Virus record (IMG/VR): IMGVR_UViG_3300029841_000117 | Coordinates: 26,681 to 90,680 of that record | Reading direction: 5' to 3' (one strand) | From: a virus | Taxonomy: Duplodnaviria; Heunggongvirae; Uroviricota; Caudoviricetes | Length of the DNA stretch: 64,000 nt | In this document: piece after piece, positions 28,226-58,826 of the stretch | Layout: every line of letters begins with the position of its first letter | Numbering within the stretch: the first letter of the stretch is position 1 | Notes under the pieces: model-generated | Seen by the model: the letters and a program-made list of their open reading frames with translations, nothing else | Databases searched by the model: none | Told to the model about the DNA's origin: nothing | Program-made: the position numbers and the translations under genes

Positions 28226-28245
28226 CTTTTGCCTTTGGCGAAAAG
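28226..28245. repeat. Dispersed hairpin family, copy 1: CTTTT-GCCTTTGGCG-AAAAG
   Basis: Same 10-nt loop as the copies at 49077 and 50604, with a different but complementary stem. Lies about 50 nt downstream of a leftward gene stop. Confidence 0.5.
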
Positions 28246-28293
28246 CTGCTGAGAGAAATATGTATAACAGCAAATCTACAAAGCGGTCGTTGC

Positions 28294-28545
28294 CTACATC
28301 CATTCGGAGACAGTCCAGTATGTCAAACTGCCATTCTCTTCGTACTCGTATTTTGAAATAACCTCATCCACAGAATAGTAATCGCCATCAGCAGGAATGA
28401 GCTTATCACCATCCCAAGAACAATAACCAACCAACAATCCCTGTTCAATTCTCTCGCTGCTTAGATACGGCAAAAGGCTTTCTGGATAGTTGGTTCTAAC
28501 CATAATTTCAACTGGATGATTTGGAAGGACATCCCTGACTGTCAT
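28294..28545 (-). CDS. Hypothetical protein
   Basis: ORF in the array. Confidence 0.35.
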   Translation of the reverse strand: MTVRDVLPNHPVEIMVRTNYPESLLPYLSSERIEQGLLVGYCSWDGDKLIPADGDYYSVDEVISKYEYEENGSLTYWTVSEWM

Positions 28546-28750
28546 TGGTTCTTCTCCTGTTAATTACCCCATCGATATGTCCAACTTTAATGAAGCCTTC
28601 CGGCTCGTCCAAGTCAATCGCATATCCGTTATTGATTTTAATGAACGATGTGCCATCCACAACCCACAGGTCACCGAAGCATGGATTCAAATAGATGTCA
28701 CCATCTTGGTATTTTTCGTTCTTGTGCTCGTTGCGCTCAGTCACAGCCAC
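28508..28750 (-). CDS. Hypothetical protein
   Basis: ORF in the array. Confidence 0.3.
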   Translation of the reverse strand: MAVTERNEHKNEKYQDGDIYLNPCFGDLWVVDGTSFIKINNGYAIDLDEPEGFIKVGHIDGVINRRRTNDSQGCPSKSSS

Positions 28751-28771
28751 ACCTCCAATCGGTCATCTTAA

Positions 28772-28884
28772 ATGTGGGCGAGGATTTGCACCTCGCATGG
28801 AAAGAAAATTGGTTTGACGGGTTTATCAGGTCTGCAGCACTGTCTCTCCCACCCGCTCGGCGTCTACCTATTCCGCCACCACAT
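28772..28884 (-). other. Oversized tRNA-like element B (113 nt), paralogue of element A
   Basis: Minus strand: D-arm TGGCGGAATAGGTAGACGCC identical in pattern to bacterial tRNA-Leu. T-arm-like CGAGGTGCAAATCCTCG. Acceptor ATGTGGT/CCCACAT pairs 6 of 7. About 60 nt between the arms have no canonical anticodon stem-loop. Confidence 0.4.
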
Positions 28885-28895
28885 ATGTTCTATGT

Positions 28896-29216
28896 TCAGC
28901 TTAATCCATCCACAAAATCCCACTCGATATTGTAACGGAATTCATCGTTCAAAATTCCGTCCAGCAGTTCGTCGATATACTCCTCATCGTCTCGGTCTGT
29001 CGGGACGGGAATAATCATCTCAAACTCTGGAGCAAACGTGGACGGTTTCACCCAAATCGTTCTTTTCTCCATAGCTGGAACCTCCTTGTCGCATAAGGGG
29101 CAATACCCTGCAGTTTCGCCAAACTGTATATTCACATGATGCCCGCATCTTGGGCAGTGGATAATGCCGCTCATGCAAATCAACCTTTCACAAATCTCTT
29201 TCCGCACAGCGGACAA
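28896..29216 (-). CDS. Zinc-ribbon hypothetical protein
   Basis: CPRCGH...CPLC motifs. Confidence 0.35.
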   Translation of the reverse strand: MSAVRKEICERLICMSGIIHCPRCGHHVNIQFGETAGYCPLCDKEVPAMEKRTIWVKPSTFAPEFEMIIPVPTDRDDEEYIDELLDGILNDEFRYNIEWDFVDGLS

Positions 29217-29383
29217 CTGCGTATCTCGACAATGTCTTGGGTTGTAAAACCACCGTCATCGTCAAGCACTCTTACTCTCAACATCCCTTGTCTGTTTACG
29301 GACATCTCAATGCCGCTATATTCAGCGGTCTGGTTCATTGGAACAAAATCATTTGTCCCAGATTCACAATATGGACATTTCAT
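29180..29383 (-). CDS. Zinc-ribbon hypothetical protein
   Basis: CPYC...CPLCG motifs. Confidence 0.35.
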   Translation of the reverse strand: MKCPYCESGTNDFVPMNQTAEYSGIEMSVNRQGMLRVRVLDDDGGFTTQDIVEIRSCPLCGKRFVKG

Positions 29384-29586
29384 CTGACTACCCTCGTCTC
29401 TCTTTGCAAGAACTTTTTAATGCAGTCTCCACAATCATAGCTGACCTTGCAATTGTTCCCGCAACAATCGCCATCGCTCACAAAAGAGCAAAGCACATTC
29501 TCGCAAGTATCCCCGCCGCAAAACTCTATCAGCTCATCGGTATTCATAGTGGCTATTTTCCTTTTGATTTCCTCGAAATTAGTCAT
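29380..29586 (-). CDS. Small Cys-rich hypothetical protein
   Basis: 10 Cys in 68 aa. Confidence 0.3.
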   Translation of the reverse strand: MTNFEEIKRKIATMNTDELIEFCGGDTCENVLCSFVSDGDCCGNNCKVSYDCGDCIKKFLQRETRVVR

Positions 29587-29590
29587 CGAA

Positions 29591-30370
29591 TTAACCTTTC
29601 ATATCTTTCCAGTAGCAGTAGAGACACCCGTAGGGGCATCTCGTCTTATGTTTCAGCAGTTCAGTTTTCCCTGCATAACACATACAGCCCTTTCGTTGAT
29701 AGCCAGCCCCGCTTGATTCTGCATCCTCAGAAAATCCGAGCAGATTGAGGTCGTAGTCTGAAATGCAGCCACAGGCAATCGGCTCCGTAAGACCGGGTTC
29801 TGCACAGGACTCAATTCGGAGAACTTTGCCGTTATCCAGCCCTTCCCAGAACTGCTTTGCTTGCCGCAGCATATCGTCCACTTTTGAAAGCTGTGCTTGA
29901 GACGGAGCGAAACCGCTATCGCCATAGGGAAGCGGCAATCCAGCCTTTTTGAACCGGCTTCTTGCGTGTGGATACATATCAATAACGCTCACTCTGTATC
30001 GCTGAAATCCCATTTCCATAAAGGAAATCATTGTACGGTATGCAACTGAAAGTCCTTTCTCTGTGGGGATGATGGGGTCGATGCGAATGACGATTTTCTC
30101 CATCGGGAACCCAGCTTTAACCAACTCCATAATTGCGGCAAACTCCTCGTATGGAGTTGGTACATTAGGTTCCAAAGCAGAGTGCCCGTATCCAGTGATT
30201 GTTGCATGGACAATGAGTCTGTCTTTGTGTTCAAGAGCGGCATCGAAGAAATCCGGCGACACACACTTCGTAATTAGAACAGCAGCATCAACTCTGTCTA
30301 ATTTCTCGACCCAAGACAAATCAACGCCTGCGTCTCCCGCTTCTGTAATTCCAATCTTGTATAATGCCAT
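29591..30370 (-). CDS. Hypothetical protein with C-terminal Cys cluster (possible Fe-S, DUF1848-like)
   Basis: C-terminal GCMCYAGKTELLKHKTRCPYGCLYCYW. The family assignment is uncertain. Confidence 0.4.
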   Translation of the reverse strand: MALYKIGITEAGDAGVDLSWVEKLDRVDAAVLITKCVSPDFFDAALEHKDRLIVHATITGYGHSALEPNVPTPYEEFAAIMELVKAGFPMEKIVIRIDPIIPTEKGLSVAYRTMISFMEMGFQRYRVSVIDMYPHARSRFKKAGLPLPYGDSGFAPSQAQLSKVDDMLRQAKQFWEGLDNGKVLRIESCAEPGLTEPIACGCISDYDLNLLGFSEDAESSGAGYQRKGCMCYAGKTELLKHKTRCPYGCLYCYWKDMKG

Positions 30371-30376
30371 ATCAAA

Positions 30377-46770: not shown

Positions 46771-46814
46771 GTGCACCCTCGTCTTTCCGAGGTGTCAGCT
46801 TTTAGCTAAAAGGC

Positions 46815-47232: not shown

Positions 47233-47307
47233 TGGCAGGGGCAGTAGGATTCGAACCTACGAATAACGGAGTCAAAGTCCGCTGTGTTACCGCTTCACCA
47301 TACCCCT
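47233..47307 (-). tRNA. tRNA-Gln (anticodon TTG), CCA encoded
   Basis: Acceptor AGGGGTA/TGCCCCT, anticodon arm GCGGA-CTTTGAC-TCCGT, T-arm GTAGG-TTCGAAT-CCTAC. Confidence 0.8.
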
Positions 47308-47425
47308 ATATCTGCAGGCTCATGCAGCGGCGTCCCGCCAAACCAACCTGTAACCGACTTCCAGAGCAGGCTCTGGCGTGTCGTAAAGGCATTTCCTTTA
47401 ACGCATAATTTAATGGTTTCTTACT

Positions 47426-47502
47426 TGGAGCGGCGTACCAGACTCGAACTGGCACCACCGGTTTGGAAGACCGGAGTGCTAACCGTTGAACACCAACGCC
47501 GC
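47426..47502 (-). tRNA. tRNA-Gly (anticodon TCC), CCA encoded
   Basis: Acceptor GCGGCGT/ACGCCGC, anticodon arm CCGGT-CTTCCAA-ACCGG. Confidence 0.8.
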
Positions 47503-47688
47503 ATGGTCGGCTTCTCGCTTAGATTGTCACACGCTACCGGCAACTACGCTCCGAAAAGTCGTAGCCCCTATTCCGTCAGGTCAAACCGGTCTTGACGCAT
47601 CAAGACAAGCGCAGTTTTCAGCAAGCATTTTCATTCTTTGTGAGGTAAGCCGATAATCGCTCACATCAGTTGGGAGCTACCCAACAAC

Positions 47689-47764
47689 TGGCAGGGGTGA
47701 ATGGATTCGAACCACCATCTGACGGTTTTGGAGACCGCTATGTTAGCCATTGCACCACACCCCT
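47689..47764 (-). tRNA. tRNA-Trp (anticodon CCA), CCA encoded
   Basis: Acceptor AGGGGTG/CACCCCT, anticodon arm GCGGT-CTCCAAA-ACCGT. Confidence 0.8.
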
Positions 47765-47854
47765 TGGCGGAGTGGACAGGACTTGAACCTGCACATCCTT
47801 TCGGATTACTCACGGTTTAGCAAACCGCTGCCTTACCGTTAGGCTTACCACTCC
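47765..47854 (-). tRNA. tRNA-Ser (anticodon GCT), type II, CCA encoded
   Basis: Acceptor GGAGTGG/CCACTCC, anticodon arm GCGGT-TTGCTAA-ACCGT, long variable arm. Directly abuts tRNA-Trp. Confidence 0.8.
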
Positions 47855-48543
47855 ATTGGAATTACTTTATTATACAGAGCAATAAATTTCTCATTGACCT
47901 GCTTATCCACATGATAATGTCCAAAGAACCACCGCTTGAATGTGAGGTCGGAACAAACCCTATCCAAAAAGCTGACCATCGGGTCGTTCTCGTACCAGCT
48001 TGCGAGCAGAGTTTGAACACTCCTTGGCGCACAATGTGTAATTACATAGTCAACTCGCCAATTATTTTCTTCGAGCGCTGCAATCGCTCGTTCCATTTCT
48101 TCTCTGGACGGCATTTCCTCTTTCCACCATGAGATATGTTCCACGCGATACTCTTTATCAACAGAGCGAGCACCGCCCATGCAGAAGATTTTCTTTCCAT
48201 CAATCGTGAGCACCTGCCCTCTGTCCAGATGATAGATGTCAGGAGCGATTTCACGCACCTTTCCGCCAAATTTGTCAATCAGCGGGAACTGGTAGAGCAT
48301 ATCAAAGTTCTCATGGTTGCCATCAATCCAAAGTGTCGTAAAGTTTTTCGCTGTCAGCCAGTCTTGCCACCACATCTCTCGATGCGAACCGTCCCAGCAG
48401 AGTCCAAAATCGCCACATATGATTACGAAATCATTCTTCGTCAATTCCTTTTGTTGTGGGAACTTTGTTGTATTAAGCTTGGCAATATCAATGTTTGCGT
48501 GTGTATCTCCAGTGACATAAATCATGCTCAGTTCCTTTCTCAT
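47845..48543 (-). CDS. Calcineurin-like metallophosphoesterase (second copy of this family)
   Basis: GDTHAN, GDFG, GNHE motifs. The 3' end overlaps the 5' end of tRNA-Ser by about 10 nt. Confidence 0.55.
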   Translation of the reverse strand: MRKELSMIYVTGDTHANIDIAKLNTTKFPQQKELTKNDFVIICGDFGLCWDGSHREMWWQDWLTAKNFTTLWIDGNHENFDMLYQFPLIDKFGGKVREIAPDIYHLDRGQVLTIDGKKIFCMGGARSVDKEYRVEHISWWKEEMPSREEMERAIAALEENNWRVDYVITHCAPRSVQTLLASWYENDPMVSFLDRVCSDLTFKRWFFGHYHVDKQVNEKFIALYNKVIPMEW

Positions 48544-49076
48544 CTGCAGTCCATATGTATATTCTGTTCTGGTCTCTTCGGTTATCTCCTGTAGCGACGG
48601 GATTTAGATGAGCTGAAAGCGAGTTCAAATCCCAAGCGGCGATGATGAAATCATTGGGAGACAATGGGTTCGACGGTCGCTCATCGGATGGAGATGACAA
48701 GACATCGAGAATAGTTTTAATGAGCTGTACAGCGAGCTTAGGCGCCTTCGCAGCAGGCTGCGGGCGGGGAATTGTGCTGTCCAGCAAAGTGATACTTCAG
48801 CCTTTGGCGTGAAGCACATTCCTTACGAAATGTTATTCACTGCAAATGATAATTTGATTATCCTGTAATCTACATGGAGGTAGCTCCCTACGAGGAGGAG
48901 CTCCGGCACCCAGTGACTGGCGTGCGACATCTTTTGGTCGTCTCGTTGAATCCATTGTGGCACAATGGATTCAAGTGATTCGGGCTGCTCACCGTGTGGT
49001 TCGCAGCCTCGAAGGATGACTTGAGTCTGCAGGTGAATGCGCCTCCGGGGAGGTTTTCCTCCCTATCAAGTTGTTA

Positions 49077-49096
49077 CTTATGCCTTTGGCGATAAG
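49077..49096. repeat. Dispersed hairpin family, copy 2: CTTAT-GCCTTTGGCG-ATAAG, inside a ~60-nt repeat also present upstream of the RT
   Basis: Lies 50 nt downstream of the RT stop. The flanking TTGTTACTT and CCTCCGGGG..CCTCCC blocks are shared with the copy at 50560-50625. Confidence 0.55.
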
Positions 49097-49145
49097 CATT
49101 GCTTTCGCAATTATGCATTACAGGATTGCGGGTTATTTATAGACG

Positions 49146-50282
49146 TTACCGCAGGTCGTCCTTCATCATGCGGATTACATCCACATTCATTTTCTTGTTG
49201 ATGTAAGCTACAATTGCGTCGATGGTCTCTTTTTCGACCATACGATAATAGCTATGCAGACCATACATTACCTGTACATCATTCCGCTCCCAAGCGACAC
49301 CATTGTTCTTATCTGTGATGTAATTGTACAGCATTGACTGGAACTGCTTTTTCTTTTTATGACCGACCGTAATCTCGTTGTCCTTATTCAGCATAACGCC
49401 AAGATTCCAGTTGCGTCCCGCTGATGAACCATACCGAGTCTTGCTTGCATTGATTGTGAACGGGGCACCAAAGCTGTTCAATGTACTTACTACCAGCTCT
49501 TCAACAGAACGAACATCAAAATCATACTTGGATGAAATGATGAAGTCATCCGCATATCTGGTATAAATGAAGCTCTGTTTTTCAAAATTACGGAGCGTAT
49601 TCGACAGTTTGAAATCAACCGGAATCATCATTACGTTTGTGATAAGCGGTGAAATTGGGGTACCTTGCGGTAGCCCACCATTTAAGAACGCTAACGACAT
49701 AGCTGCCCGCAATGCTGCCTCGCCCTGTGGCTCTTTAACAATCTCACTAAAAGGAAAAACCATCGAGAACATTGAGATGGCATAATCCAATGTTGTGCTG
49801 CCAAAAAAGTCGTGCAGGTCAAGCTTTGCGAACCATTTGCTGCTGTTCTTCTGGTGACGCTTAACCGCATCGACTGTACTCCGCTTCTTTACATAAGCAA
49901 ACGCGGCAGTATGATAGAGTGCATGGAAATCATCCTCGAAAATCGTTTTGAGTCTTCTCAGGGCGTCCATCAGCTCTGCCTTTGGCGCATCGATTCTACG
50001 AAGACCACCAGATTTCTTTGGGATGTAAAAGGTCTCATACAACTCGCTCCGTTCCTTTGCACGAAGCTCTGCTGTATCGTTATTAAATCGCACGAGTTTT
50101 CCGATTAAAGCTTCAACACCAATCTTGCTGGAAAAATGTTCACTGACATTTTCGACCTCGTATGTTCTTGTGTTTGCAATATTGGCATTGACAACCGGAG
50201 GTGTCTGATAGTTTTGAAACAGGTACTCTTCCAGTGTCATCTGATGATAAATCGGTGACTGCCTAACAGTGATATAGACCAT
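49146..50282 (-). CDS. Reverse transcriptase, retron-type (RT domain only; no maturase or endonuclease domains)
   Basis: IPKKSGGLRRIDAP, LDLHDFFGS, GLPQGTPISPLITNV, IYTRYADDFIISS and INASKT align with retron Ec86 RT (IDLEDFF, LLPQGAPSSPKLANL, IYTRYADDLTLS, INSKKT). RBS AAGGAGGGG upstream. Confidence 0.8.
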   Translation of the reverse strand: MVYITVRQSPIYHQMTLEEYLFQNYQTPPVVNANIANTRTYEVENVSEHFSSKIGVEALIGKLVRFNNDTAELRAKERSELYETFYIPKKSGGLRRIDAPKAELMDALRRLKTIFEDDFHALYHTAAFAYVKKRSTVDAVKRHQKNSSKWFAKLDLHDFFGSTTLDYAISMFSMVFPFSEIVKEPQGEAALRAAMSLAFLNGGLPQGTPISPLITNVMMIPVDFKLSNTLRNFEKQSFIYTRYADDFIISSKYDFDVRSVEELVVSTLNSFGAPFTINASKTRYGSSAGRNWNLGVMLNKDNEITVGHKKKKQFQSMLYNYITDKNNGVAWERNDVQVMYGLHSYYRMVEKETIDAIVAYINKKMNVDVIRMMKDDLR

Positions 50283-50603
50283 TTCTTCCCCTCCTTGTCC
50301 AATAACTAACTGTAACCTACATATGTCTGCTGCTTCCCAGAATTCCTAAGTCTGAAGACTACGTCGTCCTTGTGGGAGGTGGTGCGAGCTCTTGCAAGAT
50401 GCGAGATTTTTTTTCTTTGATTTCTTGCGACTGACAGCATGAGTTTGATGTTAGTACATTTCGCCCATGTATCGAAGAATTGGCGAAAAGTGCTTGACAT
50501 TTGGTTGGTTTTGTGGCGCGATGCTGCCGACCCGTGGCAGCCGGTTTGCTTTCAGGGTTCCGCCGCGTCATCCTCCGGGGGTCATCCTCCCGACAATTTG
50601 TTA

Positions 50604-50623
50604 CTTTAGCCTTTGGCGTAAAG
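50604..50623. repeat. Dispersed hairpin family, copy 3: CTTTA-GCCTTTGGCG-TAAAG
   Basis: In the 378-nt non-coding region upstream of the RT and 40 nt downstream of the stop of the 50661..51467 gene. The stem differs from copy 2 by compensatory AT/TA swaps. Confidence 0.55.
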
Positions 50624-50660
50624 CTCTCTTACGAGAAAATCCGTTACAGTCTGTGGCGCA

Positions 50661-51467
50661 TTAAGGCTGCGCCATACCTAATAATTCAAACAGTTCTTCG
50701 TCCGTAAAGACATTTTGAGTTGTGAATGGCTTGATGAAAAACACGCCGTCCTCTCGTTGTTCGACAATCGTGTCAGGGCTCAACGTGCACACCGGTCTTA
50801 CCCCGGAACAGCTTGATGCTGTCAGCCTGTTTAACACACCAGAGCGATTCGAAATCGCCGCTCTTTCGGTCTCAACATCGTCTAACAGCCAGAAGCTCAT
50901 AAATCCACGGTCTGAATCAAGCCCTGCATAACGAGCTTTCAGGTCGAACAAGTCGGCTGTCGGATTCGGACGAATGCCTTTTCTTTTGAATAAGTCAAAG
51001 CGCCGCCCATCTTGGAGGCTAAAAATGTCTGCAATTGATGGTAGGCGAATCAACGAAGACACTCGGTTCTCTCCGACCACATACTCTTTCCTGACCAAAG
51101 AAGCAATCTCGTGGTCTTCAAAGAAATACAGAAACCCGTAATGGTCTTCATAGCGAGCATAACTATACCTCACAAAGGCACCGGGCGAAGAATCATTATC
51201 GTGCATTGCGTGATACCACATCATCTGGTCACTGTTCAAGAACGAAAACAGATTTGACACTGGATACTTCGCATTATTAACACGCCTATAATGCCCAGTC
51301 TCTTCCGCCGCATCGAAGCACAGGTAGTCGATAGCTTTTTCTGTGATAAAATCACAGTTTGGATTGCCTTTCAGCCAAACAATCGGGTACGGGTTGTCTT
51401 TGTCCACACCGTACTTGCCCATCACGAGTTGTGCACCTACTTTGAGAGCACCAACGGTTGTGTCCAT
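50661..51467 (-). CDS. Hypothetical protein
   Basis: ORF between the E1-like gene and the RT upstream region. Confidence 0.4.
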   Translation of the reverse strand: MDTTVGALKVGAQLVMGKYGVDKDNPYPIVWLKGNPNCDFITEKAIDYLCFDAAEETGHYRRVNNAKYPVSNLFSFLNSDQMMWYHAMHDNDSSPGAFVRYSYARYEDHYGFLYFFEDHEIASLVRKEYVVGENRVSSLIRLPSIADIFSLQDGRRFDLFKRKGIRPNPTADLFDLKARYAGLDSDRGFMSFWLLDDVETERAAISNRSGVLNRLTASSCSGVRPVCTLSPDTIVEQREDGVFFIKPFTTQNVFTDEELFELLGMAQP

Positions 51468-51498
51468 ACCTTACCCCTCCCTTCGTTCTTTTTGAAAA

Positions 51499-52176
51499 TT
51501 AAAACGCATCCAACAGCGGCTGGAATGCGTCACAAATAATCAGCTTATTCAGCCCCTTGCCCCTGATGTACTTGACGAAGTTGCTCACGCCCAGAGCACA
51601 AATCACTCTGACCGTAGTCACAACGCCAAGCGTGATGCCACAAGCTGAGACCGGAGTTTCTTCCGCCGCCTCATCGTGTGTAAAATTCATGGAGTTGAGG
51701 AGGTCTTTCTTCATCTTGTAGTCAGACCAATCAGCAGCATAGTGCTGACCAGCCTCCAGCAGAGTTCTGAAATCAAACATCGCCTTTACATACGGATTGT
51801 CGAAGTGTTTCTCAACAATCTTTTTTCTCAGCTCGATGTTATCGACGCACAAGAACACATAGCCGGATAACTGCTGCCCGTCCCACCCATCCTTGTAAAG
51901 CTTCAGGTCATCCTTAACATCAGGATTGATGTCGAAAAGAATATCCGCCAATGCCTCGACCTTAGAGCGCCCAATGTCCTGCTGACGGAAAATCTGATTT
52001 GCCAGATTGTGCGGACTTACTGTGTCCATATCCCACAGTGCGATGTTCGTGAGTCCTAAGCGAACCAGCAGCTCCGCAACCGTCGCGCCGACAGAACCAC
52101 ACCCGACGATGTGGATTCTACAATCAACCTTCTCGGGCTGGAAATATTCATAGCTCTTTGACAGGTCAATAGCCAT
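51499..52176 (-). CDS. E1-like (ThiF/MoeB family) adenylyltransferase, minimal 225-aa form
   Basis: Rossmann motif IHIVGCGSVGATVAELLVRLGL and WDMDTVSPHNLANQ (ThiF D.D.VE.SNLNRQ). Confidence 0.6.
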   Translation of the reverse strand: MAIDLSKSYEYFQPEKVDCRIHIVGCGSVGATVAELLVRLGLTNIALWDMDTVSPHNLANQIFRQQDIGRSKVEALADILFDINPDVKDDLKLYKDGWDGQQLSGYVFLCVDNIELRKKIVEKHFDNPYVKAMFDFRTLLEAGQHYAADWSDYKMKKDLLNSMNFTHDEAAEETPVSACGITLGVVTTVRVICALGVSNFVKYIRGKGLNKLIICDAFQPLLDAF

Positions 52177-52177
52177 A

Positions 52178-53134
52178 TTACTTACCTCCTAAGTATGCAT
52201 AAGGGTCGTAGTCATCTTCGTCTTCCCAGCCATTCATTGATTCTTGGCAGGCATTCTGTCCATGCCAACCAGCTCCAATTCTGGTTCTGGGTTTCTCTCC
52301 CTCGTTCTTTTTACCAGATGACTTATCCTTGTTTTCTTCTTTCTTACTGTCCTTCTTGTCGTCGGACTTACCCGCAAGCGGATTGTACGGAGCACCTGCC
52401 GGAGCCCCCTTGTATCCCTGATTGTAGTAACCGCCGTATCCGCTCTGACCGCCATATGCATAGGACTTTGACTTCACCATATCCTTCGCGTTTTTGATAA
52501 ACTCATCAAGTCCTTCATTCTGACCGATAATCTTGACCGTGATATCTTTATCCTCAAACATCACGTTCTTCTTGAGGTCATAGATTTTATTTGTGCTTGC
52601 AAATGACTTGTTCCAAATCATAAAGATGTAGAAGTCATTATCGCCAAGCATCCCGAGGATTTCCTCTTGATGATTGAGGTCAACAGAGGATGGAGACGTA
52701 CCCATATTTACATGGGAATGTCCCTGCATATAGATGTGGTTGAAACGCTCATCTTCGATGTTTTCCTGAATCCACAGAGCATATTTCTCGGTGTCCATCT
52801 CAACCGTTGCGCCGGTTACCTCCTGCGGATAGACAACGATGTCATCGATGACATACTCGTCAAGCGATTCATCTTCAGTTCGACGTGCGACACCATGCCA
52901 TGCGACCTCTTTATCGAACTCTTTGATAAGCATAGTCATCTTTGCCCACGCCTCTGCGCTGAAGTAAACTACTGCCTTTCTGTCACCACATGAGAACGCT
53001 TTGGTAAAAGAAAGCTTTCCATCCGAGAGCTTTGTAAGTGACAAAGCCTTCTCAAAATCTTGACGGCACTCATCAATGAGTTCCTGCGTCAACTTAATTG
53101 GTCTGCTCATTTTGCGCCTCCTCCGTCTGCTCAT
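52178..53134 (-). CDS. JAB/MPN (JAMM) metalloprotease with Gly/Tyr/Lys-rich low-complexity tail
   Basis: JAMM motif E...HIYMQGHSHVNMGTSPSSVD (HxHx7Sx2D). Ends 2 nt before the E1-like gene. Confidence 0.6.
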   Translation of the reverse strand: MSRRRRRKMSRPIKLTQELIDECRQDFEKALSLTKLSDGKLSFTKAFSCGDRKAVVYFSAEAWAKMTMLIKEFDKEVAWHGVARRTEDESLDEYVIDDIVVYPQEVTGATVEMDTEKYALWIQENIEDERFNHIYMQGHSHVNMGTSPSSVDLNHQEEILGMLGDNDFYIFMIWNKSFASTNKIYDLKKNVMFEDKDITVKIIGQNEGLDEFIKNAKDMVKSKSYAYGGQSGYGGYYNQGYKGAPAGAPYNPLAGKSDDKKDSKKEENKDKSSGKKNEGEKPRTRIGAGWHGQNACQESMNGWEDEDDYDPYAYLGGK

Positions 53135-54587
53135 TCATTGCCTCCTGCTCATCAAGCCATCTAATTGCTTCGTTCGGCTTTACAACGCGACCATCTGGCA
53201 ACTCAATACAACGACTGACCGTGTTATTTGACCACATGGTTCTCATAAACTCGCCCATAACTGCACTGTCGCCGAAGTTCAGACTCTTACAGGACGCAAT
53301 ACACTGCTCAAGTGCACCGATATAATTTCGTTTTCTCAGCAGTTCATTGATAGTCCTGCTGTAATTGCCCATGCAATGATAACGGTCAATATGCGTATTA
53401 GGCATATAACCATCAAATGTGTAATCAGAAAAATCACCAGTCTGCGCAGAAACACTACCATTCAGGTCGAATCTATATGCTGCGCAAAAGCGGATTCTAA
53501 GCCGAGGATTTTCACTTACGAAAATCTCCTGCATCAGCTTCTGCATTTTCTCTGAAGCTGCCGCATTGTGACCGTTGCCACCATCCGGTCGATACACATA
53601 ACTGCTTCTATTGTTGATTGCTCGCTCAGCCATATCTCTGTCAAAGTATTCAAGGTAGTCTTTAACCGAGAAATACATATCCGTATTGCTAACATGAGAC
53701 AGGACAAGTCTGTTGTTGCAGAGGAAATAATCCATGATTTCAGAATCTCCACCGCCCTCTGCAATTCTTTGCTCAAGCCCCAACAATCTGATGCACTTGT
53801 CATTGCGGCGCGACAGATACGCGCCGATAGAATCATTGAGTCGCTGAATCTCCATGTCAATAGATTGGATTTCATTGCGAACAGTATCGCATTCGATGCG
53901 CTCATATCTGGTTTCAAAATCACCCAGCAACTGACGAATCCGCGCTGTTCTGAAATCATATCCCTCGGCAAGCTTTGCAATGTACTTCTCATAGTTTGCC
54001 GAATTTGTTTCTCGCAAGGATTGCATCAATGCAAGCTCATCTTCTGTCAAACCATCATCCTGATTCAGGTACCACGGCATGAATGCAAGAATAGATACCT
54101 GAAGGTAATGCATTTTCTTAACATCAAGATTGTCAACGAAGACAATCACCGACTTCTTGTCAGGGTTGATATAACAATCAACATTGAATGACTTCCGATA
54201 AAACGCTTTGACCTTATCAAGACGGTGATACTCTGGGTAGATAGAAGTAAACTTGTCCTCCACAATCTGCATACAAGCCAGATTGCTATTTTGGTCAGCA
54301 TTGAAGCTATGGACTATGAGCGCACCGCTGGCATTCATTTGATAACTGCTACAGATAGCACTAACCGCACGTTCTGCTGGAACGTTACGGATAGTGTTCC
54401 CATCATAATTGGTCGAACCGAAAGTCAGGTAGACACTTTCGTCCTCTTTGATTCGAGGTGCAACCAGTGCACGAAGCGTTGAAAGGAACGAACAGTCATT
54501 GCCAAAATAGCTTCCGGTAATGTTCTGGAAAAAGCTATTAGCCGCCTCTGACGTAAACGGTGTCGATGTAATGCTTGTCTTGAACAC
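53094..54587 (-). CDS. Hypothetical 497-aa protein, first gene of the JAB-E1 operon
   Basis: Overlaps the JAB gene start by about 40 nt. No recognisable domain. Confidence 0.4.
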   Translation of the reverse strand: MFKTSITSTPFTSEAANSFFQNITGSYFGNDCSFLSTLRALVAPRIKEDESVYLTFGSTNYDGNTIRNVPAERAVSAICSSYQMNASGALIVHSFNADQNSNLACMQIVEDKFTSIYPEYHRLDKVKAFYRKSFNVDCYINPDKKSVIVFVDNLDVKKMHYLQVSILAFMPWYLNQDDGLTEDELALMQSLRETNSANYEKYIAKLAEGYDFRTARIRQLLGDFETRYERIECDTVRNEIQSIDMEIQRLNDSIGAYLSRRNDKCIRLLGLEQRIAEGGGDSEIMDYFLCNNRLVLSHVSNTDMYFSVKDYLEYFDRDMAERAINNRSSYVYRPDGGNGHNAAASEKMQKLMQEIFVSENPRLRIRFCAAYRFDLNGSVSAQTGDFSDYTFDGYMPNTHIDRYHCMGNYSRTINELLRKRNYIGALEQCIASCKSLNFGDSAVMGEFMRTMWSNNTVSRCIELPDGRVVKPNEAIRWLDEQEAMNEQTEEAQNEQTN

Positions 54588-54613: not shown

Positions 54614-54698
54614 TGGTGGGGAATATCGGATTTGAACCGATACGGCATACGCCAACAGAACTTAAATCTGTTGTGTCTTCCAATTCCACCAATTCCCC
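54614..54698 (-). tRNA. tRNA-Leu (anticodon TAA), type II, CCA encoded
   Basis: Acceptor GGGGAAT/ATTCCCC, anticodon arm ACAGA-TTTAAGT-TCTGT, variable stem GGCGTATGCC. Confidence 0.8.
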
Positions 54699-54699
54699 A

Positions 54700-54730
54700 T
54701 GAAAAGAGCCGCCCCATGAAGGGCGGCTCT
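54700..54730 (-). terminator. Rho-independent terminator
   Basis: AGAGCCGCCC-ttcatg-GGGCGGCTCT then TTTTC on the minus strand, downstream of the 54741..55019 gene. Confidence 0.55.
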
Positions 54731-54740
54731 AATCTAAAAC

Positions 54741-55019
54741 TTAGGCGTTGTCCGCCTTAACGACGTTCAGCAGGAAGCACTTCTCGGTAATGCCGAACTG
54801 CTGGAAGGTCTTATCGAGGTCGCCGGGGTTCAGAGAAGAACCATCGAGGTGCATGACACCACGAGTGTAATCAACGCCGTTTGCCTCAAGGCAGGAGCGC
54901 AGGGTGGTATTCTCATCGATGATGACAGCCTCACGCTTAACATTGTTGCCAACAGTAACCTTAATCATTATGTATTCTCCTTTTATTCGTTTTTTGTTTT
55001 TTGGGTGGTGGGGCGGCAT
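54741..55019 (-). CDS. Small hypothetical protein, possibly beta-grasp/ubiquitin-like (true start probably MIKVTVGNN)
   Basis: About 76-aa core beginning MIKVTV. Does not end in GG. Confidence 0.35.
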   Translation of the reverse strand: MPPHHPKNKKRIKGEYIMIKVTVGNNVKREAVIIDENTTLRSCLEANGVDYTRGVMHLDGSSLNPGDLDKTFQQFGITEKCFLLNVVKADNA

Positions 55020-55041
55020 AGCCGCCCCGTTGCAGTGTCTC

Positions 55042-55533
55042 TTACTGAGCGACAGTGATGTTGCTCATCACGGTTGCCTTCTCAGCCGCAATCTCTTCGA
55101 GAACAGTGGGGAGCTTCTCTTCGAGCTTGTTGAGGTTGATGATGGCAGCGCCAAGGCGGTCAGCGACCCAATCCTTCACATCGCCGGTAACACCGTCGAG
55201 GAACAGGGTGATGCACGCCAGCTTGTCATCGTCACGGGTCTCGGAGCCGAAGGATGCGCCAACTGCGTTGATATTGCCTGCACCATGAGTTGTGCCGACA
55301 CCGAAGATGGGCTCCTTGCCATCCTCGCCGCCCTTCAGGACGAGCTCCTTGGGACGATACTTCTCGATGGTCTTGATGTCCTCAAGCTTCATTGCGGAAG
55401 TGACGACGACTGCGTCGCCTGCGATAACGATTTTTGCCATGTGTATGTACTCCTTGATTTCAAATGTACCCCTATTAGTTCGTCTTACGACTATCCGCCC
55501 ACACCACGAGGAGGTTGGAGCCATTGTGGACAT
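55042..55533 (-). CDS. Hypothetical protein (probable start at internal MAKIVIAGD)
   Basis: GGAG-like RBS before the internal Met. Gly/Ala/Val-rich. Confidence 0.35.
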   Translation of the reverse strand: MSTMAPTSSWCGRIVVRRTNRGTFEIKEYIHMAKIVIAGDAVVVTSAMKLEDIKTIEKYRPKELVLKGGEDGKEPIFGVGTTHGAGNINAVGASFGSETRDDDKLACITLFLDGVTGDVKDWVADRLGAAIINLNKLEEKLPTVLEEIAAEKATVMSNITVAQ

Positions 55534-55614
55534 AAAACCACTGAAGCAACTGCCCCAGTGGTTATGGTTTTATCTTGCACCACTTCCGTGGTGCTGATGC
55601 TTTTGATACACAGA

Positions 55615-56274
55615 TTAGAAACTGAAAGCCGGGGCGACGCCATAGGAATACCTTGCGTAGTAATTGTACGCGTTGCCGTTCGTGTACACAAAGCAGAAGC
55701 CGGTGCTGTAGTAGTAATAAGGAGAACGCAGCATAGTGTACTCAGCGGAACCATTACGCTTCTTGCCCCAAGGGACATCTTCTTGCCGGTAATATTCGTA
55801 CCAATGACCTTCGCCCGGTGCCGAATAGATGTTCCGTCCAAAGGTTTCTTTTTCGGACTTAATCCAAAACTTGCACTCCGTTTCGAGCAATTCGTTCGCT
55901 CCGTCATAGGTGTTTGCAGTAAGCTTGATTACTGGTTCGACCACCTCAAGAATCTCGTCTGGCATGAGCTGGTAAATTACGCCATCTTCGTCGTTCATCT
56001 TATGGAACAACTCTGTTGCACCCCAAGAGCCTCTGTTCGTGTCGTTGCTATTCCAACGATGCCGGTTTGGAAGGCAGTCAACCATCTCCCAAGTCAGTGG
56101 GAGGATACGACCACTTTTTGTAACATCGTGTTTGAATCCAATGATACGGAACTGAACCAGCGTATCGTCTTTTAATCTGACGTTTTTGAAATCTCCTAAT
56201 CTAAGGAAGTCGGGTGCCATATCCCCAAGCCCCTTCAGCGAACGCCACGGCATATTATCCAAACATTCAGGCAT
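55615..56274 (-). CDS. Hypothetical protein
   Basis: ORF in the array. Confidence 0.4.
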   Translation of the reverse strand: MPECLDNMPWRSLKGLGDMAPDFLRLGDFKNVRLKDDTLVQFRIIGFKHDVTKSGRILPLTWEMVDCLPNRHRWNSNDTNRGSWGATELFHKMNDEDGVIYQLMPDEILEVVEPVIKLTANTYDGANELLETECKFWIKSEKETFGRNIYSAPGEGHWYEYYRQEDVPWGKKRNGSAEYTMLRSPYYYYSTGFCFVYTNGNAYNYYARYSYGVAPAFSF

Positions 56275-56302
56275 ATGTTACCTCCATCCATTATCATTTA
56301 GT

Positions 56303-56392
56303 TGGCGGGGAGTGTAGGATTCGAACCCACGGACGGCTTTCACCGTCAACGGTTTTCAAGACCGCCACCATAAGCCACTCGGTCAACTCCCC
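56303..56392 (-). tRNA. tRNA-Ser (anticodon TGA), type II, CCA encoded
   Basis: Acceptor GGGGAGT/ACTCCCC, anticodon arm GCGGT-CTTGAAA-ACCGT, T-loop TTCGAAT. Confidence 0.8.
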
Positions 56393-56424
56393 AAATAAAA
56401 AGAGACGGGTCATTCGCCCGTCTC
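56393..56424 (-). terminator. Rho-independent terminator
   Basis: GAGACGGG-cgaatga-CCCGTCTC then TTTTTATTT on the minus strand, at the 3' end of the 56410..57072 gene. Confidence 0.55.
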
Positions 56425-57072
56425 AGTCTCAGTTTCATCTTCTTCATCTTCCGGCTCGTCCACGCCGTCGATGTCATATTCATCATACGGAAACTCTGTA
56501 AAGACTTCACAGCCGCTTTCTTTTTCCGTTATAATCATCGGTCGATAGATATGGAAACCGTAATCTTCTGAAAGCTCTTTCAAAAATCCATCAAGGATTT
56601 CATCGACAGCTTCATAGCCATACGCTTCTAAGATATTTGTTCCGTCGTTGTCACCCTCCTGCAGCGCGATTGCGAGGAAATCTGCCATAGCCAAACAGAG
56701 TTCATCATCTCGCTCATACATAGCATCCTCTATGTCCATCCATGTTTCATCGCTTTCTTCTTTGCCGCCATCTGGATTATCTCCCGGAACATACTTGTTG
56801 TCTGTAATCACAACAGGAAAGAGATAGCGTGTGTAGAATTTCTTCGACACCGCCGTACAGTCCTCCTCACTCACGCAAGGTTCTTTGTACTCAATTTTTT
56901 CGTTGCCCTTTGCAACAGCCAAAACTGGGAGGTCGTTTTCCTCGGTAAGATACACGGCGTACTCCGTGTCGGTGTTCTCAGCGATGAGAACCATTTCTTT
57001 GTTCAAACGTTTTCTGCTTGCTTGAAAAAACCCCCATACTGCATCAGCGGGGATATGAATATGAACTCCCAT
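56410..57072 (-). CDS. Hypothetical protein with strongly acidic C-terminus
   Basis: The track ORF extends to 57246, but its first 58 codons read through tRNA-Lys. The real start is ATG 57072, preceded by TAAGGAGG. Confidence 0.45.
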   Translation of the reverse strand: MGVHIHIPADAVWGFFQASRKRLNKEMVLIAENTDTEYAVYLTEENDLPVLAVAKGNEKIEYKEPCVSEEDCTAVSKKFYTRYLFPVVITDNKYVPGDNPDGGKEESDETWMDIEDAMYERDDELCLAMADFLAIALQEGDNDGTNILEAYGYEAVDEILDGFLKELSEDYGFHIYRPMIITEKESGCEVFTEFPYDEYDIDGVDEPEDEEDETETETGE

Positions 57073-57098
57073 AAGGAACCTCCTTATATATTTGACTT

Positions 57099-57174
57099 TG
57101 GTACTCCCGACGAGGCTCGAACTCGTGACCCCAGCATTAAAAGTGCCGTGCTCTACCAACTGAGCTACGGAAGT
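57099..57174 (-). tRNA. tRNA-Lys (anticodon TTT), CCA encoded
   Basis: Acceptor ACTTCCG/CGGGAGT, anticodon arm CGGCA-CTTTTAA-TGCTG. Confidence 0.8.
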
Positions 57175-57345
57175 ATATTGACCGGCTATTACGGTATGCC
57201 CAGAAAGGTGGACACGCTTGAGTTCCACAAACAGTTTTGCCCGCAAAAGATGGAGGTGAATATTTGATGGAGGTGTTTATCTTGATGCAGGTACGAAGAA
57301 AGGAACTTACAAATGAACGAAGGACACGCGCATGGCAAAACTGCA

Positions 57346-57429
57346 TGGTGCAGGATAAGAGACTTGAACTCTTACGCCGATGGCAGCGGGACTTGAATCC
57401 GCCGTGTCTGCCAATTCCACCAATCCTGC
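57346..57429 (-). tRNA. tRNA-Leu (anticodon CAA), type II, CCA encoded
   Basis: Acceptor GCAGGAT/ATCCTGC, anticodon loop TTCAAGT, variable stem GCCATCGGC, T-arm AGAG-TTCAAGT-CTCT. Confidence 0.7.
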
Positions 57430-57436
57430 ATATTTC

Positions 57437-57643
57437 TTATATCCAACCAGCTAATACTGCGATTGTCGTCACACTCAAAACGGTTAGTACAATGTTGTCA
57501 TACACTATTCGATTGTGGAGATTTTTGCTTGCTCGCTCAACCTTTCTTTGGAGTCGCTCAATTTCTTCTTTTTTGCTTTCGCGCTCAAATTTGTATTTGC
57601 ACCACGCTTCGCCTGATATGAAGTCACCACGCTCCACGTTCAT
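57437..57643 (-). CDS. Small tail-anchored membrane protein
   Basis: C-terminal TM helix LTVLSVTTIAVLAGWI. Confidence 0.3.
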   Translation of the reverse strand: MNVERGDFISGEAWCKYKFERESKKEEIERLQRKVERASKNLHNRIVYDNIVLTVLSVTTIAVLAGWI

Positions 57644-57666
57644 CCCTCCTTACCAAAGCCATGTTT

Positions 57667-57993
57667 TTATTGAATGCCGTCTACCCACAACTCTAACGTG
57701 CGACGATTTGCGTACTGTTTACAGAGCTCTTCGATGGACACACCATGTGCCTTTGCATCCGTTTTCATTGCCGTAAACTGGTCTCTGTATTTTTTGACTA
57801 TCTTTTCAACGGCAAGAAAATGCTCTTTGTCTTTAGGATAGAAGGCAATATCATCAAGGCAGACACTGCTTATATCTCCCGTGTGGCAAATTACTTTCCA
57901 GCAATTTTTGCATGGCGCATCATCTATGCTCACCATATGATTGATGCAGTCACTGCAGTGGACAACCACTCCATTTACCTTAATTGGTTTCAT
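57667..57993 (-). CDS. Hypothetical Cys-rich protein
   Basis: ORF in the array. Confidence 0.35.
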   Translation of the reverse strand: MKPIKVNGVVVHCSDCINHMVSIDDAPCKNCWKVICHTGDISSVCLDDIAFYPKDKEHFLAVEKIVKKYRDQFTAMKTDAKAHGVSIEELCKQYANRRTLELWVDGIQ

Positions 57994-58016
57994 TGGTTGC
58001 TCCTCCTTTTATGAGG

Positions 58017-58092
58017 TGGTGGAGATAGCCGGACTCGAACCGGCGACCCTCTGCTTGCAAAGCAGATGCTCTCCCAACTGAGCTATATCCCC
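58017..58092 (-). tRNA. tRNA-Ala (anticodon TGC), CCA encoded
   Basis: GGGGATATAGCTCAGTTGGGAGAGC... anticodon arm TCTGC-TTTGCAA-GCAGA. Confidence 0.8.
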
Positions 58093-58218
58093 ATACTTTA
58101 CGGCATAAAACCCAAGTCAACTCCGCCGTTTGATGTTCCCCACACTAATACCTCAATGCTTCGGATTGCATCAATAAGCCTTGCGCTCCGATACTCAAGG
58201 AATGAACATCGTTCCCAC

Positions 58219-58291
58219 TGGCGCCGAGAGCCGGTCTTGAACCGCCATTATAGCCTGCAGTGCTATGTTTTACCAGTTAAACTACCTCGGC
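58219..58291 (-). tRNA. Atypical tRNA-like gene (acceptor and CCA intact; anticodon loop ACTGCAG without U33; 3-nt variable region)
   Basis: GCCGAGG-TA-GTTTAACTGGTAAAAC-ATAGC-ACTGCAG-GCTAT-AAT-GGCGG-TTCAAGA-CCGGC-TCTCGGC-G-CCA. Confidence 0.4.
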
Positions 58292-58320
58292 AAAAAGCGC
58301 CGCCGAAGAATCGGCGGCGC
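58292..58320 (-). terminator. Rho-independent terminator
   Basis: GCGCCGCCGA-ttct-TCGGCGGCGC then TTTTT on the minus strand, just upstream of the atypical tRNA. Confidence 0.55.
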
Positions 58321-58807
58321 TAAAACTCATTCAATCTATTGCACTTAATCTCCGCTACACTTGGATTAGGGCTGGTCTCGTGCTTTTTTCATAGTAGAGC
58401 CTCCTAACTACATCCCATGTGGTGCGCCGAATGTCGGCGCTGTTGAAGCATTAGGTATTGCAGATTGAACTGCTTTATATAAACAACTCGCTACCGTCCA
58501 GCCAAGTGGTACTCCCTGCGGTCACATATACACCCGACGAACCATCAGTCTTGGATTTTATAAAAGGTTGGTGTTTATGCTTTAAGGCTTGAGCTTTGTT
58601 CAAAGAAAAAACTTTAAGCGTTGAGCCTTTAACCTTCAGTTTTGACTTTTGAGTTTTACAGTGATATTTCACCGGAACCAAGCCGACGTTCATCTTATGT
58701 CGCTTGGTTGCAGTGACTCTTTTCATCATAATTTGATTTTGTAAAACCCATTACAAAAAATAGACAGCTTAGCAGGCTGGAGCCAAATTCTTTTTTACTT
58801 TACTTAT

Positions 58808-58826
58808 CTGTATTTGGCGAAAACAG
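58808..58826. repeat. Dispersed hairpin family, degenerate copy 4: CTGT-ATTTGGCGAAA-ACAG, preceded by TTTACTTTACTTAT
   Basis: Shares TTACTTAT and TTTGGCGA with the other copies. Lies 45 nt downstream of the stop of the 58874..59515 gene. Confidence 0.35.

Follow-up and report, generated by a model that had tools for sequence, protein, structure and literature searches.

On the evidence of sequence comparison, the window (the whole 64,000-nt stretch of phage DNA analyzed here) carries members of a new family of large phage RNAs that are structured and bear a sequence-specific recognition hairpin, and this family is well supported even if its members prove to be no substrates of a reverse transcriptase (RT). 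Five complete units of 220-340 nt each (A1, A2, A3, B1 and B2) lie in the window, all on the minus strand, and three of them surround a retron-type RT gene; this linkage is the main clue to their function. We found no published description of such units, or of their arrangement around an RT gene, in the literature. The RT gene, the units and their recognition hairpins (P2) are as follows.

49146-50282, minus strand: retron-type RT gene, 378 aa, YADD catalytic motif; A1 upstream, A2 and A3 downstream
50649-50310, minus strand: unit A1, 340 nt; closing helix CUGUAAC (50649-50643) / GUUACAG (50316-50310), with G 50642 and G 50317; 67.2 bits
50604-50623, minus strand: P2 of A1, CUUUA-C-GCC-AAA-GGC-UAAAG; third copy of the original prediction
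49123-48863, minus strand: unit A2, 261 nt; CUGUAAU + G 49116 ... G 48870 + AUUACAG; 75.6 bits; fold z-score -7.3
49077-49096, minus strand: P2 of A2, CUUAU-C-GCC-AAA-GGC-AUAAG; second copy of the original prediction
48845-48544, minus strand: unit A3, 302 nt; UUGCAGU + G 48838 ... G 48551 + ACUGCAG; 67.0 bits
48795-48814, minus strand: P2 of A3, CUUCA-C-GCC-AAA-GGC-UGAAG; overlooked in the original prediction
45400-45175, minus strand: unit B2, 226 nt; GACCGCUUU + G 45391 ... G 45184 + AAAGCGGUC; 15.3 bits; fold z-score -9.2
45329-45348, minus strand: P2 of B2, divergent apex, CUUCU-C-GC-UUAAA-GC-AGAAG
28287-28065, minus strand: unit B1, 223 nt; ACCGCUUU + G 28279 ... G 28073 + AAAGCGGU; 38.1 bits, E 2e-6; fold z-score -5.4
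28226-28245, minus strand: P2 of B1, CUUUU-C-GCC-AAA-GGC-AAAAG; first copy of the original prediction

The units occupy entire intergenic gaps and end about 20-30 nt ahead of either a gene's RBS or the following unit. The 3' end of A1 is separated from the RT start codon (50282) by 27 nt and the 5' end of A2 lies 22 nt past the RT stop codon, while A3, which has an ortholog in one relative (L121), begins 17 nt beyond A2 and finishes directly before a metallophosphoesterase gene. The B units are 4 kb and 21 kb from the RT gene; B1 stops 30 nt short of the start codon of a 65-aa ORF and B2 28 nt short of that (ATG, 45146) of a small basic ORF, and the two ORFs share no relationship. A gene for an HNH endonuclease is close to B1.

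Every unit is closed by an inverted repeat that forms a helix of 7-9 bp, flanked on its inner side by two invariant G's, one just past the 5' strand and one just ahead of the 3' strand. Two adjacent hairpins follow the 5' G: P1, whose sequence is free and whose loops are GNRA in all three A units, and then P2, whose outer stem covaries and leads through a bulged C to a fixed apex. Directly after P2 comes a conserved GUAACAAnUUG, which like a second segment, AUGUAG, is single-stranded, and then 120-250 nt of further helices. This distal part is multi-branched in minimum free energy folds of the A units, with no single msd-type hairpin, and includes a long covarying hairpin in the B units: in B1, P1 and P2 are followed by a long hairpin that carries a GC-rich side branch, and then by P4, and B2 shares this architecture, its long hairpin being about 80 nt. 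Folding energies are well under those of shuffles in A2, B1 and B2, as the z-scores above show.

Covariation across units from more than 100 related metagenomic phage loci is strong in all helices. For P1 and P2, 98.5% of cells are paired among 35 distinct sequences (shuffles 74.9%, slid controls about 42%), and 13 of the 14 pairs show double changes. Applied to eight B units, RNAalifold predicts 43 pairs, with double changes in 26. The closing helix occurs in more than 12 compensatory versions among A units and four among B units; its 100% pairing is partly by construction, because the 3' strands were located through a complementarity search, but their constant position and the flanking G's, invariant in both the A-unit and the B-unit alignments, are independent of that search. 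A scan against Rfam 15, of the window at the gathering threshold and of all unit regions at E<=5, returned noise only and no family matching the units.

P2 is the element that first drew attention. On the minus (gene-sense) strand it reads G-CUUNN-C-GCC-AAA-GGC-NNAAG-U, and the exact 20-nt pattern CTTNNCGCCAAAGGCNNAAG (minus strand) occurs four times in the window, vs 0.00 expected from shuffles, which bears out the original view that it is no chance palindrome. The NN/NN positions are complementary in all four exact copies (TT/AA, CA/TG, AT/AT and TA/TA), and the motif is present in at least 119 IMG/VR loci, with both NN pairs complementary in 121 of 152 instances and more than seven dinucleotide combinations; the claim of a variable yet complementary stem holds. 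The list of members needs revision. Three of the four copies first listed (28226, 49077 and 50604) are exact, while the supposedly degenerate one at 58808-58826 is no member: the 5'-domain covariance model that recovers the four exact copies at E 4e-15 to 2e-6 gives no match there even at E<=10. The exact copy at 48795 and a diverged fifth at 45329-45348 (CTTCT-C-GC-TTAAA-GC-AGAAG) had been overlooked. The latter scores weakly (15.3 bits, E 0.33), and we count it as a member because it shares unit ends and fold with the family, not because of its model score. A fifth exact match to the 10-mer, at 49978-49987, lies inside the RT ORF without a stem and is coincidental.

Details of the hairpin also change. 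What had been described as an invariant 10-nt loop folds instead as the bulged C, three GCC/GGC base pairs and an AAA triloop, and the upstream TTACTT(A/T) block corresponds, on the opposite strand, to the 3' arm of the stem together with the conserved GUAACAAnUUG behind it. The element is best read as RNA of the gene-sense strand, in agreement with the G.U pairs and with the GNRA loops of the neighboring P1; since G.U pairs become A.C mismatches on the other strand, their frequency fits sense-strand RNA only. The reported lack of a U-tract is inexact. The P2 stem is itself A/U-rich and without a U-run, unlike an intrinsic terminator, but the 28226 copy has GCCCGCUACGCGGGC and a U-run 25 nt further on; that hairpin is a side branch of the long internal helix of B1 and is absent in a relative (L061). 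The only terminator-like site (28179-28193) is 33 nt beyond P2 and within B1.

The RT itself is best matched by retron RTs (PADLOC RT_II-A, 5.7e-46; NCBIfam retron_St85_RT, 2.4e-51), although its score of 174.7 bits is below the NCBIfam curated cut-off of 235, and its nearest solved structures are the RTs of retrons Ec83, Ec78 and Ec67. Retron RTs carry the signature motifs NAxxH and VTG; aligned to the Ec83 RT, NAKIH becomes AVKRH and VTG becomes NLG, so that only the H and the G are retained. Relatives of this RT number in the thousands in gut metagenomes, on contigs of 115-225 kb, and conserved genes for a ThiF-like and a DUF6273-like protein lie upstream. PADLOC found no effector among the neighboring ORFs tested. 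Two other RT-bearing elements were considered and rejected. For a group II intron, in which RNA domains I-IV and V/VI would surround the RT ORF, no Rfam intron model matches at E<=5 and the retron model fits the RT better (2.4e-51 vs 2.2e-24). For a diversity-generating retroelement (DGR), comparing 47800-51700 exhaustively with the entire window, diagonal by diagonal and for every combination of strands, brought up no template/variable repeat pair with adenine-specific differences, and blastn was likewise empty.

Linkage between units and RT recurs well beyond this genome. Of 17 RT loci at 41-99% identity, 14 have a 5'-domain match 220-380 nt upstream of the RT ATG, a second match usually starts 13-60 nt past the RT stop among loci with downstream flank present, and all 5'-domain matches at these loci are on the RT strand. 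Nearly all RT relatives examined have one unit directly upstream and one or two directly downstream, a layout that persists down to 41% RT protein identity in a different phage background; the upstream unit has been lost in one of them (L133). The P2 apex varies from lineage to lineage (GCC-AAA-GGC, GCC-UAA-GGU, GC-UGUUA-GC, G-UUGUCAA-C and GG-UUAAA-CC), and within one genome the units mostly have a common apex and different outer stems. In the present genome the apex is constant in four of the five units and differs in B2.

In our preferred reading, in which we place about as much belief as doubt, the units may be retron-like msr-msd RNAs that serve a single phage RT. They would be co-transcribed with the minus-strand genes, the P2 apex would be recognized by the RT, and the closing repeat would bring the 5' G beside the template end, from where the RT could prime and reverse-transcribe the unit's distal portion into single-stranded DNA, with B1 and B2 as extra substrates in trans. 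Because units end 20-30 nt before an RBS or the next unit, template copying or RNase H removal may also change expression of the downstream gene. Retron ncRNAs are defined by inverted repeats at their ends (IRa2/IRa1), beside which stand a branching G and an opposing G (PMC13402713). Such repeats and G's are found in all five units and in their relatives, and an ncRNA stands beside the RT gene on the same strand (A1, and likewise in 14 of 17 RT relatives). Set against the retron reading are the five RNAs and lack of a recognizable effector, the partly kept signature motifs, and an RT below curated cut-offs; the multi-branched distal A units, the different apex of B2 and the relative without an upstream unit are further points.

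The strongest competitor, possible but in our view doubtful, is that the units are RT-independent, cis-acting modules of polycistronic transcripts and that the RT gene merely sits in a unit-rich region. They would then be folded 'insulators' or leaders governing processing, stability or translation of the next gene, with P2 bound by another phage or host protein in the manner of lambda nut/boxB and N. The placement of all units in intergenic gaps, ending just short of an RBS or the next unit, suits such modules, as do the distance of the B units from the RT gene and a relative (L069) in which a complete unit follows a terminator and lies well away from that relative's RT. An apex that tracks lineage fits any other genome-encoded partner equally well. 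What these modules leave unaccounted for is that RT flanking is kept among RT relatives as distant as 41% identity, whose phage background is different, and that a closing repeat with two invariant G's is a specific hallmark of retron RNA. A2, moreover, precedes another unit and not a gene, and is therefore no leader.

Quite improbable is a new self-cleaving or otherwise catalytic RNA that cuts long phage transcripts and would resemble the ribozymes behind the RAGATH name. Three RAGATH RNAs occur in the window, and the multi-helix junction, GNRA loops and conserved single strands would be in keeping with catalysis, but no Rfam ribozyme family matches even at E<=5, no core sequence of a known class is recognizable by eye, and the RT linkage would be left unexplained. 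We give very little credence to sites acting as DNA, whether cruciforms or single-strand hairpins for recombination or mobility (attC-, REP/HUH- or MITE-like) or DGR target hairpins; the copies are dispersed near an RT gene, TTAC adjoins the hairpin on the plus strand and the HNH gene is close to B1, but the RT is retron-type, the scan of 47800-51700 against the window shows no DGR repeat pair, G.U pairs and GNRA loops point to a one-strand RNA, and orthologous units hold position in diverged phages while drifting by compensatory change, unlike a recently mobile element. The original idea of a free-standing 3'-UTR stability or processing hairpin, factor-dependent terminator or duplex-DNA protein site at a constant distance behind each gene is scarcely credible, because P2 is one stem-loop of a multi-helix RNA whose closing helix joins sequences that lie 220-340 nt from each other, scans for promoters and terminators reveal no enrichment, and the constant distance holds for three copies (37-49 nt past a stop codon, because units start 6-28 nt past the upstream stop) but not for the 48795 copy, which follows another unit.

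Returning to the retron-like reading, a wider and more speculative proposal, which we hold only tentatively and think rather unlikely, is that widespread large gut phages of Clostridia may carry a retron-derived system in which one RT serves several template RNAs (five here). As each RNA is fused 5' of a gene, reverse transcription would yield a set of distinct single-stranded DNAs, which could serve for example as decoys against host defenses, or would switch downstream genes. The grammar of retron RNA (terminal repeat, two bordering G's, recognition hairpins) is present in a phage in five copies and with no recognized effector. If the units are RT substrates, they would put retron chemistry to a new use in biology and would form a natural multi-template system that deserves attention in retron-based DNA production; if the multi-template proposal is also true, this would be a viral use of that chemistry with several templates. 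The units are open to direct testing, since exact coordinates, candidate priming G's and a covariance model are established.

The lambda nut site consists of boxA and a boxB hairpin bound by N. The units resemble it in having a short hairpin with a fixed, lineage-specific apex and a free stem next to a conserved linear motif, recurring intergenically just after genes, and differ in that the hairpin is built into a closed RNA of several helices, 220-340 nt long, and in that the units are linked to an RT gene, with no N-like protein identified. The window also holds RF03153, RF03104 and RF03047 (RAGATH motifs and similar candidate structured RNAs from between the genes of gut phages); the units match no Rfam family at any threshold tried, but occur in the same kind of genome and, like RAGATH-type RNAs, are supported by covariation only. 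Canonical retrons are bacterial anti-phage systems of one ncRNA, one RT and an effector gene, in which the msd region takes the form of a long hairpin and its DNA copy (msDNA) is joined by a 2'-5' bond. Compared with retron msr-msd RNAs (Ec83/Ec78 type I-A, St85 type II-A), the present system has five RNAs per RT, three around the gene and two far away, is encoded by a large phage of gut Clostridia that looks virulent, and not in a bacterial defense island, and has no recognized effector, an RT in which NAxxH and VTG are not kept, a multi-branched distal region and a predicted msDNA. Shared with those retrons are an RT with a retron-like sequence, a structured RNA directly upstream on the same strand, terminal inverted repeats with a conserved G on each side, small stem-loops right after the 5' G, and a size within the range of larger retron RNAs. 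In the hyRNA of the type VI Retron-Vpa2, an RT template and a downstream small ORF share one transcript and translation of the ORF depends on reverse transcription (bioRxiv 10.1101/2025.10.22.683967). The units have no sequence relationship to it, the ORFs downstream are mutually unrelated, no HTH partner was found, and a regulatory link here would be wholly putative; the layout is nonetheless similar, with small ORFs starting 28-30 nt past the ends of B1 and B2 and genes following closely on A1 and A3.

The hairpins that brought this genome to attention are one element of something larger. We consider it very probable that the hairpin, called P2 here, forms one stem-loop in large structured RNAs of a new family, and likely that this family is functionally tied to a reverse transcriptase (RT) encoded between two of its members. 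The original prediction, which read four hairpin copies as a 3'-UTR RNA element, a terminator or a protein-binding DNA site rather than chance, rested on an observation that is real but incomplete: it was right in kind, in that P2 belongs to an RNA element, and wrong in scale, as P2 is part of a larger unit. A pattern scan for additional units gave, on the minus strand, only the five listed here, along with chance-level matches. Their ends fall 20-30 nt before a ribosome-binding site, or before the next unit.

Structured RNA units in the window, each complete and intergenic, with verified coordinates
50649-50310, minus strand: A1
49123-48863, minus strand: A2
48845-48544, minus strand: A3
28287-28065, minus strand: B1
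45400-45175, minus strand: B2

The window contains five exact matches to the 10-mer GCCTTTGGCG, all on the plus strand, and the 20-nt pattern, with its flanks and free stem positions, occurs four times vs 0.00 in shuffles. The copies first listed at 28226, 49077 and 50604 are all exact; another exact copy, at 48795, had been overlooked, and the supposed degenerate copy at 58808 is no member, having only TTTGGCGAAA in common with the others and giving no match to the covariance model even at E<=10. The 10-mer at 49978 lies within an ORF, lacks a stem, and was discarded. On the sense strand P2 reads G-CUUNN-C-GCC-AAA-GGC-NNAAG-U, and folds into an outer stem of 6 bp with a closing G.U pair, topped, beyond a bulged C, by three G-C pairs that carry an AAA triloop. 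The pattern recurs across IMG/VR contigs, in no fewer than 119 stretches, and both free stem positions are complementary in 121 of 152 instances (TT/AA 39, CA/TG 20, AT/AT 20, TA/TA 15, CT/AG 9, TG/CA 6, GG/CC 2, plus wobble variants), those without pairing being mostly unrelated chance matches. Of 35 sequences, 30 have the closing G.U, and two further stem positions show U.G. Because these pairs become A.C mismatches on the opposite strand, the structure is that of the sense strand, i.e. the transcript.

An attC, REP or IS200-type DNA hairpin is contradicted by this strand-specific structure with its G.U pairs and by the stability of orthologous positions. A tRNA-like element finds no ARAGORN call at the hairpin sites and does not fit the arm geometry, a T7-like phage RNA-polymerase promoter has its GGGAGG downstream of only two copies, and sigma-54 and sigma-70 promoters, on either strand, are dismissed by spacing that varies among copies and scans that show no enrichment. 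Group II introns, known ribozymes and other Rfam families gave no matches, and the units are without a match in Rfam 15 whether gathering thresholds or E<=5 are applied.

Comparison with orthologs in diverged phages shows that the copies at 48.5-50.7 kb each head a non-coding unit of 260-340 nt. Flank alignment of many loci places another hairpin, P1, directly 5' of P2, free in sequence and often with GNRA loops (GAAA, GUAA), and reveals conserved single-stranded segments beside the hairpins (YUGYAAY-G-NAU upstream, GUAACAAnUUG downstream). The A units end in CAUGUAG-RUURCAR, whose last seven bases are complementary to the unit's first seven. This closing helix, P0, exists as CUGUAAC/GUUACAG, UUGUAAC/GUUACAA, CUGUAAU/AUUACAG, UUGCAAU/AUUGCAA, UUGCAGU/ACUGCAG, CUGCAAU/AUUGCAG, CCGUAAC/GUUACGG, CCAUAAU/AUUAUGG, GUGCAAU/AUUGCAC, UUGUGAU/AUCACGA and others, with double changes at all seven pairs among 20 units; slid controls pair at 22-42%. 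The 3' strands were located by complementarity, which by itself accounts for part of the 100% pairing. Independent of this search are the constant position and the two invariant G's, one following the 5' strand and one preceding the 3' strand. In upstream units the 3' strand lies at a constant 25-55 nt before the RT start, and a partner was found for the real 7-mer in 26 of 29 cases vs 7 of 29 with a reversed-7-mer control. A whole-unit A-type consensus was attempted with MAFFT, which could not align the variable interior, and thus only P0, P1, P2 and a mid hairpin are supported for this type; the distal part is multi-branched in energy folds.

The mid hairpin of A2, A3 and their orthologs belongs to a second family of hairpins, whose core is (C)CAUUGUGCCACAAUGG or CUUGUGCCACAAG and which also occurs by itself. 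A separate hairpin (GGCGCAGCCUUAAUGCGCC), whose variants in relatives retain pairing (e.g. GGCAC..GUGC, GGCGCG..GCGUC), spans the stop codon of the gene immediately before A1 (DUF6273/Hoc-like).

Further hairpins
22834-22863: second family, solitary, between two genes (22.8 kb)
47168-47197: second family, solitary, between two tRNA genes (47.2 kb)
48946-48974: second family
48652-48666: second family
50655-50673, minus strand: stop-codon hairpin upstream of A1

The copy at 28226 (B1) and a diverged sister at 45.3 kb (B2) make up a second subtype. They share the ends GACCGCUUUG(U/A)AGAUU and AUGCGGAAAGCGGU, which pair, with a G on each side, as the closing helix ACCGCUUU/AAAGCGGU; in relatives the helix covaries (GUUGCCCU/AGGGCAAC, GUCGCCUU/AAGGCGAC, GUACCCGU/ACGGGUAU) at a constant 207-217 nt. 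Of the 43 pairs that RNAalifold predicts for eight B-type units, 26 show double changes; the fold is made up of the closing helix, P1, P2 and two further hairpins, a long one and a last one. A view of B1 and B2 as "msr-only orphans" (msr-msd being the retron RNA) was dropped because both have this closing helix of their own. Nor is the copy at 28226 a truncated one followed by a terminator, as the "terminator" branches off the side of the long hairpin and is missing in one relative. The ORF directly after B2 (44989-45146, minus strand; most likely start ATG 45146, behind GGAGG) encodes a very basic, Arg/Lys-rich product of 52 aa without a family match; the ORF following B1 is acidic and unrelated to it. 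Downstream of B1, past one small ORF, lies a gene for an HNH_3 and AP2-domain endonuclease of the homing-endonuclease type (27338-27886, minus strand).

The ORF between A1 and A2 (49146-50282) encodes the RT (Pfam RVT_1, 1.2e-19). Its best matches are retron RTs (PADLOC RT_II-A, 5.7e-46; NCBIfam retron_St85_RT, 2.4e-51, below the NCBIfam cut-off), and the closest solved structures are the retron Ec83, Ec78, Ec67, Kva2 and Ec86 RTs. The whole window lacks a template/variable repeat pair, and in this context the enzyme is therefore not that of a diversity-generating retroelement. Gut metagenomes are very rich in this RT family: among the scored candidates 5341 proteins reach E<=1e-10, many of them on contigs of 115-225 kb. 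The covariance model of the 5' domain was applied to 17 loci encoding RT relatives of 41-99% identity (L127 being a duplicate of L122). Fourteen of them have a unit head 220-380 nt ahead of the RT start, and a second head follows 13-60 nt past the RT stop in most loci with the downstream flank present, often with a third; all matches were on the RT strand. The upstream head was not found at E<=1 in two loci besides L133, an Alistipes-binned contig in which the upstream unit is missing from 1650-1710 and only CUGUAAUG is left to separate the RT ribosome-binding site from the stop of the gene before it, apparently through a clean deletion. In the most distant relative, a 35-kb phage contig (MT835544; 41% identity), the upstream unit is recognisable with every element compensatorily changed (UUGUGAU-G-AAU, P1, CACUC-A-GG-UUAAA-CC-GAGUG, ACGAAUUGUC ... 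GUUUAG-AUCACGA), and ends 28 nt before the ATG. The same contig (MT835544.1) has a weak second candidate head (26201-26253, minus strand; E 2.1) roughly 1 kb downstream from the RT gene, with a P2-like hairpin, CAUUA-CACC-UAA-GGUG-GAUG.

The apex C-GCC-AAA-GGC is identical in four units of this genome while their outer stems all differ, which argues against simple homogenisation by gene conversion. The pattern speaks for selection on both parts, with the apex making a sequence-specific contact and the stem being structure-specific. Across RT lineages the apex takes other forms (GCC-UAA-GGU, GUC-AAU-GAC, GCC-GUC-GGC, GC-UGUUA-GC, G-UUGUCAA-C) that are mostly common to the units of one genome. 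Such lineage-wise change is what co-evolution with a genome-encoded partner would predict; the RT is the obvious candidate for that partner, but not the only one.

The setting is a large phage with nearly all ORFs on the minus strand, encoding a DnaE-type polymerase, helicase, primase and ligase, as well as RtcB, a CCA-adding enzyme, NAMPT, PRPP synthetase, a serine recombinase and 13-14 tRNA genes. The nearest cultured relatives are Thomasclavelia, Clostridioides and Bacillus phages, with only ~46% amino-acid identity in the polymerase, and nucleotide searches of the phage collection gave no match; contigs with relatives of the RT gene were binned with Oscillospiraceae, Acutalibacteraceae and other Clostridia. 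Four genes upstream of A1 and the RT keep their order, also in a diverged relative (L063), and encode products of 497 aa and 318 aa (no family match), a 225-aa ThiF/E1-like protein and a 268-aa DUF6273-like protein. Three candidate structured RNAs lie on the gene-sense strand near the window's right end, followed by a GC-rich tandem repeat with internal inverted repeats that continues past the window end.

Other features
46491-47854 and 54614-58291, minus strand: two tRNA gene clusters (ARAGORN, 13 genes)
46815-46883: extra tRNA gene (Rfam), without ARAGORN call
51499-54587, minus strand: conserved four-gene block
60957-61113, minus strand: RAGATH-36 (Rfam, 132.8 bits)
63394-63524, minus strand: RAGATH-4 (Rfam, 149.7 bits)
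63700-63771, minus strand: RAGATH-16 (Rfam, 95.6 bits)
63860-64000, plus strand: 58-bp tandem repeat, 2.4 copies, 100% identity, just past RAGATH-16

Full-text searches of the literature on phage-encoded retrons or RTs and on multi-RNA retrons found no description of this arrangement. NAxxH and VTG are signature motifs of retron RTs, whereas the phage RT, aligned to Ec83, has AVKRH and NLG instead. A retron also has one RNA where five are found here, no effector gene was recognised by PADLOC among the neighbouring ORFs tested, and the distal part of the A units is multi-branched. Because RT motifs, RNA number, effector and A fold argue against a canonical retron, we file the units as retron-like. 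In retron RNA, the inverted repeats IRa2 and IRa1 lie either side of msr and msd, bordered by a branching G and an opposing G (PMC13402713). Our units have the same grammar of inverted repeats at both ends with bordering G's, their msr-like hairpins come right after the 5' G, and they occupy the position typical of retron RNAs. That they are retron-type template/primer RNAs seems to us, from sequence comparison, an even call; they probably work like a retron RNA and derive from one, without forming a canonical retron. In Type VI retrons, a hybrid RNA carries on one transcript both the template of the RT and a small ORF under translational repression (10.1101/2025.10.22.683967), which the units here, ending 20-30 nt before a ribosome-binding site, resemble by analogy only.
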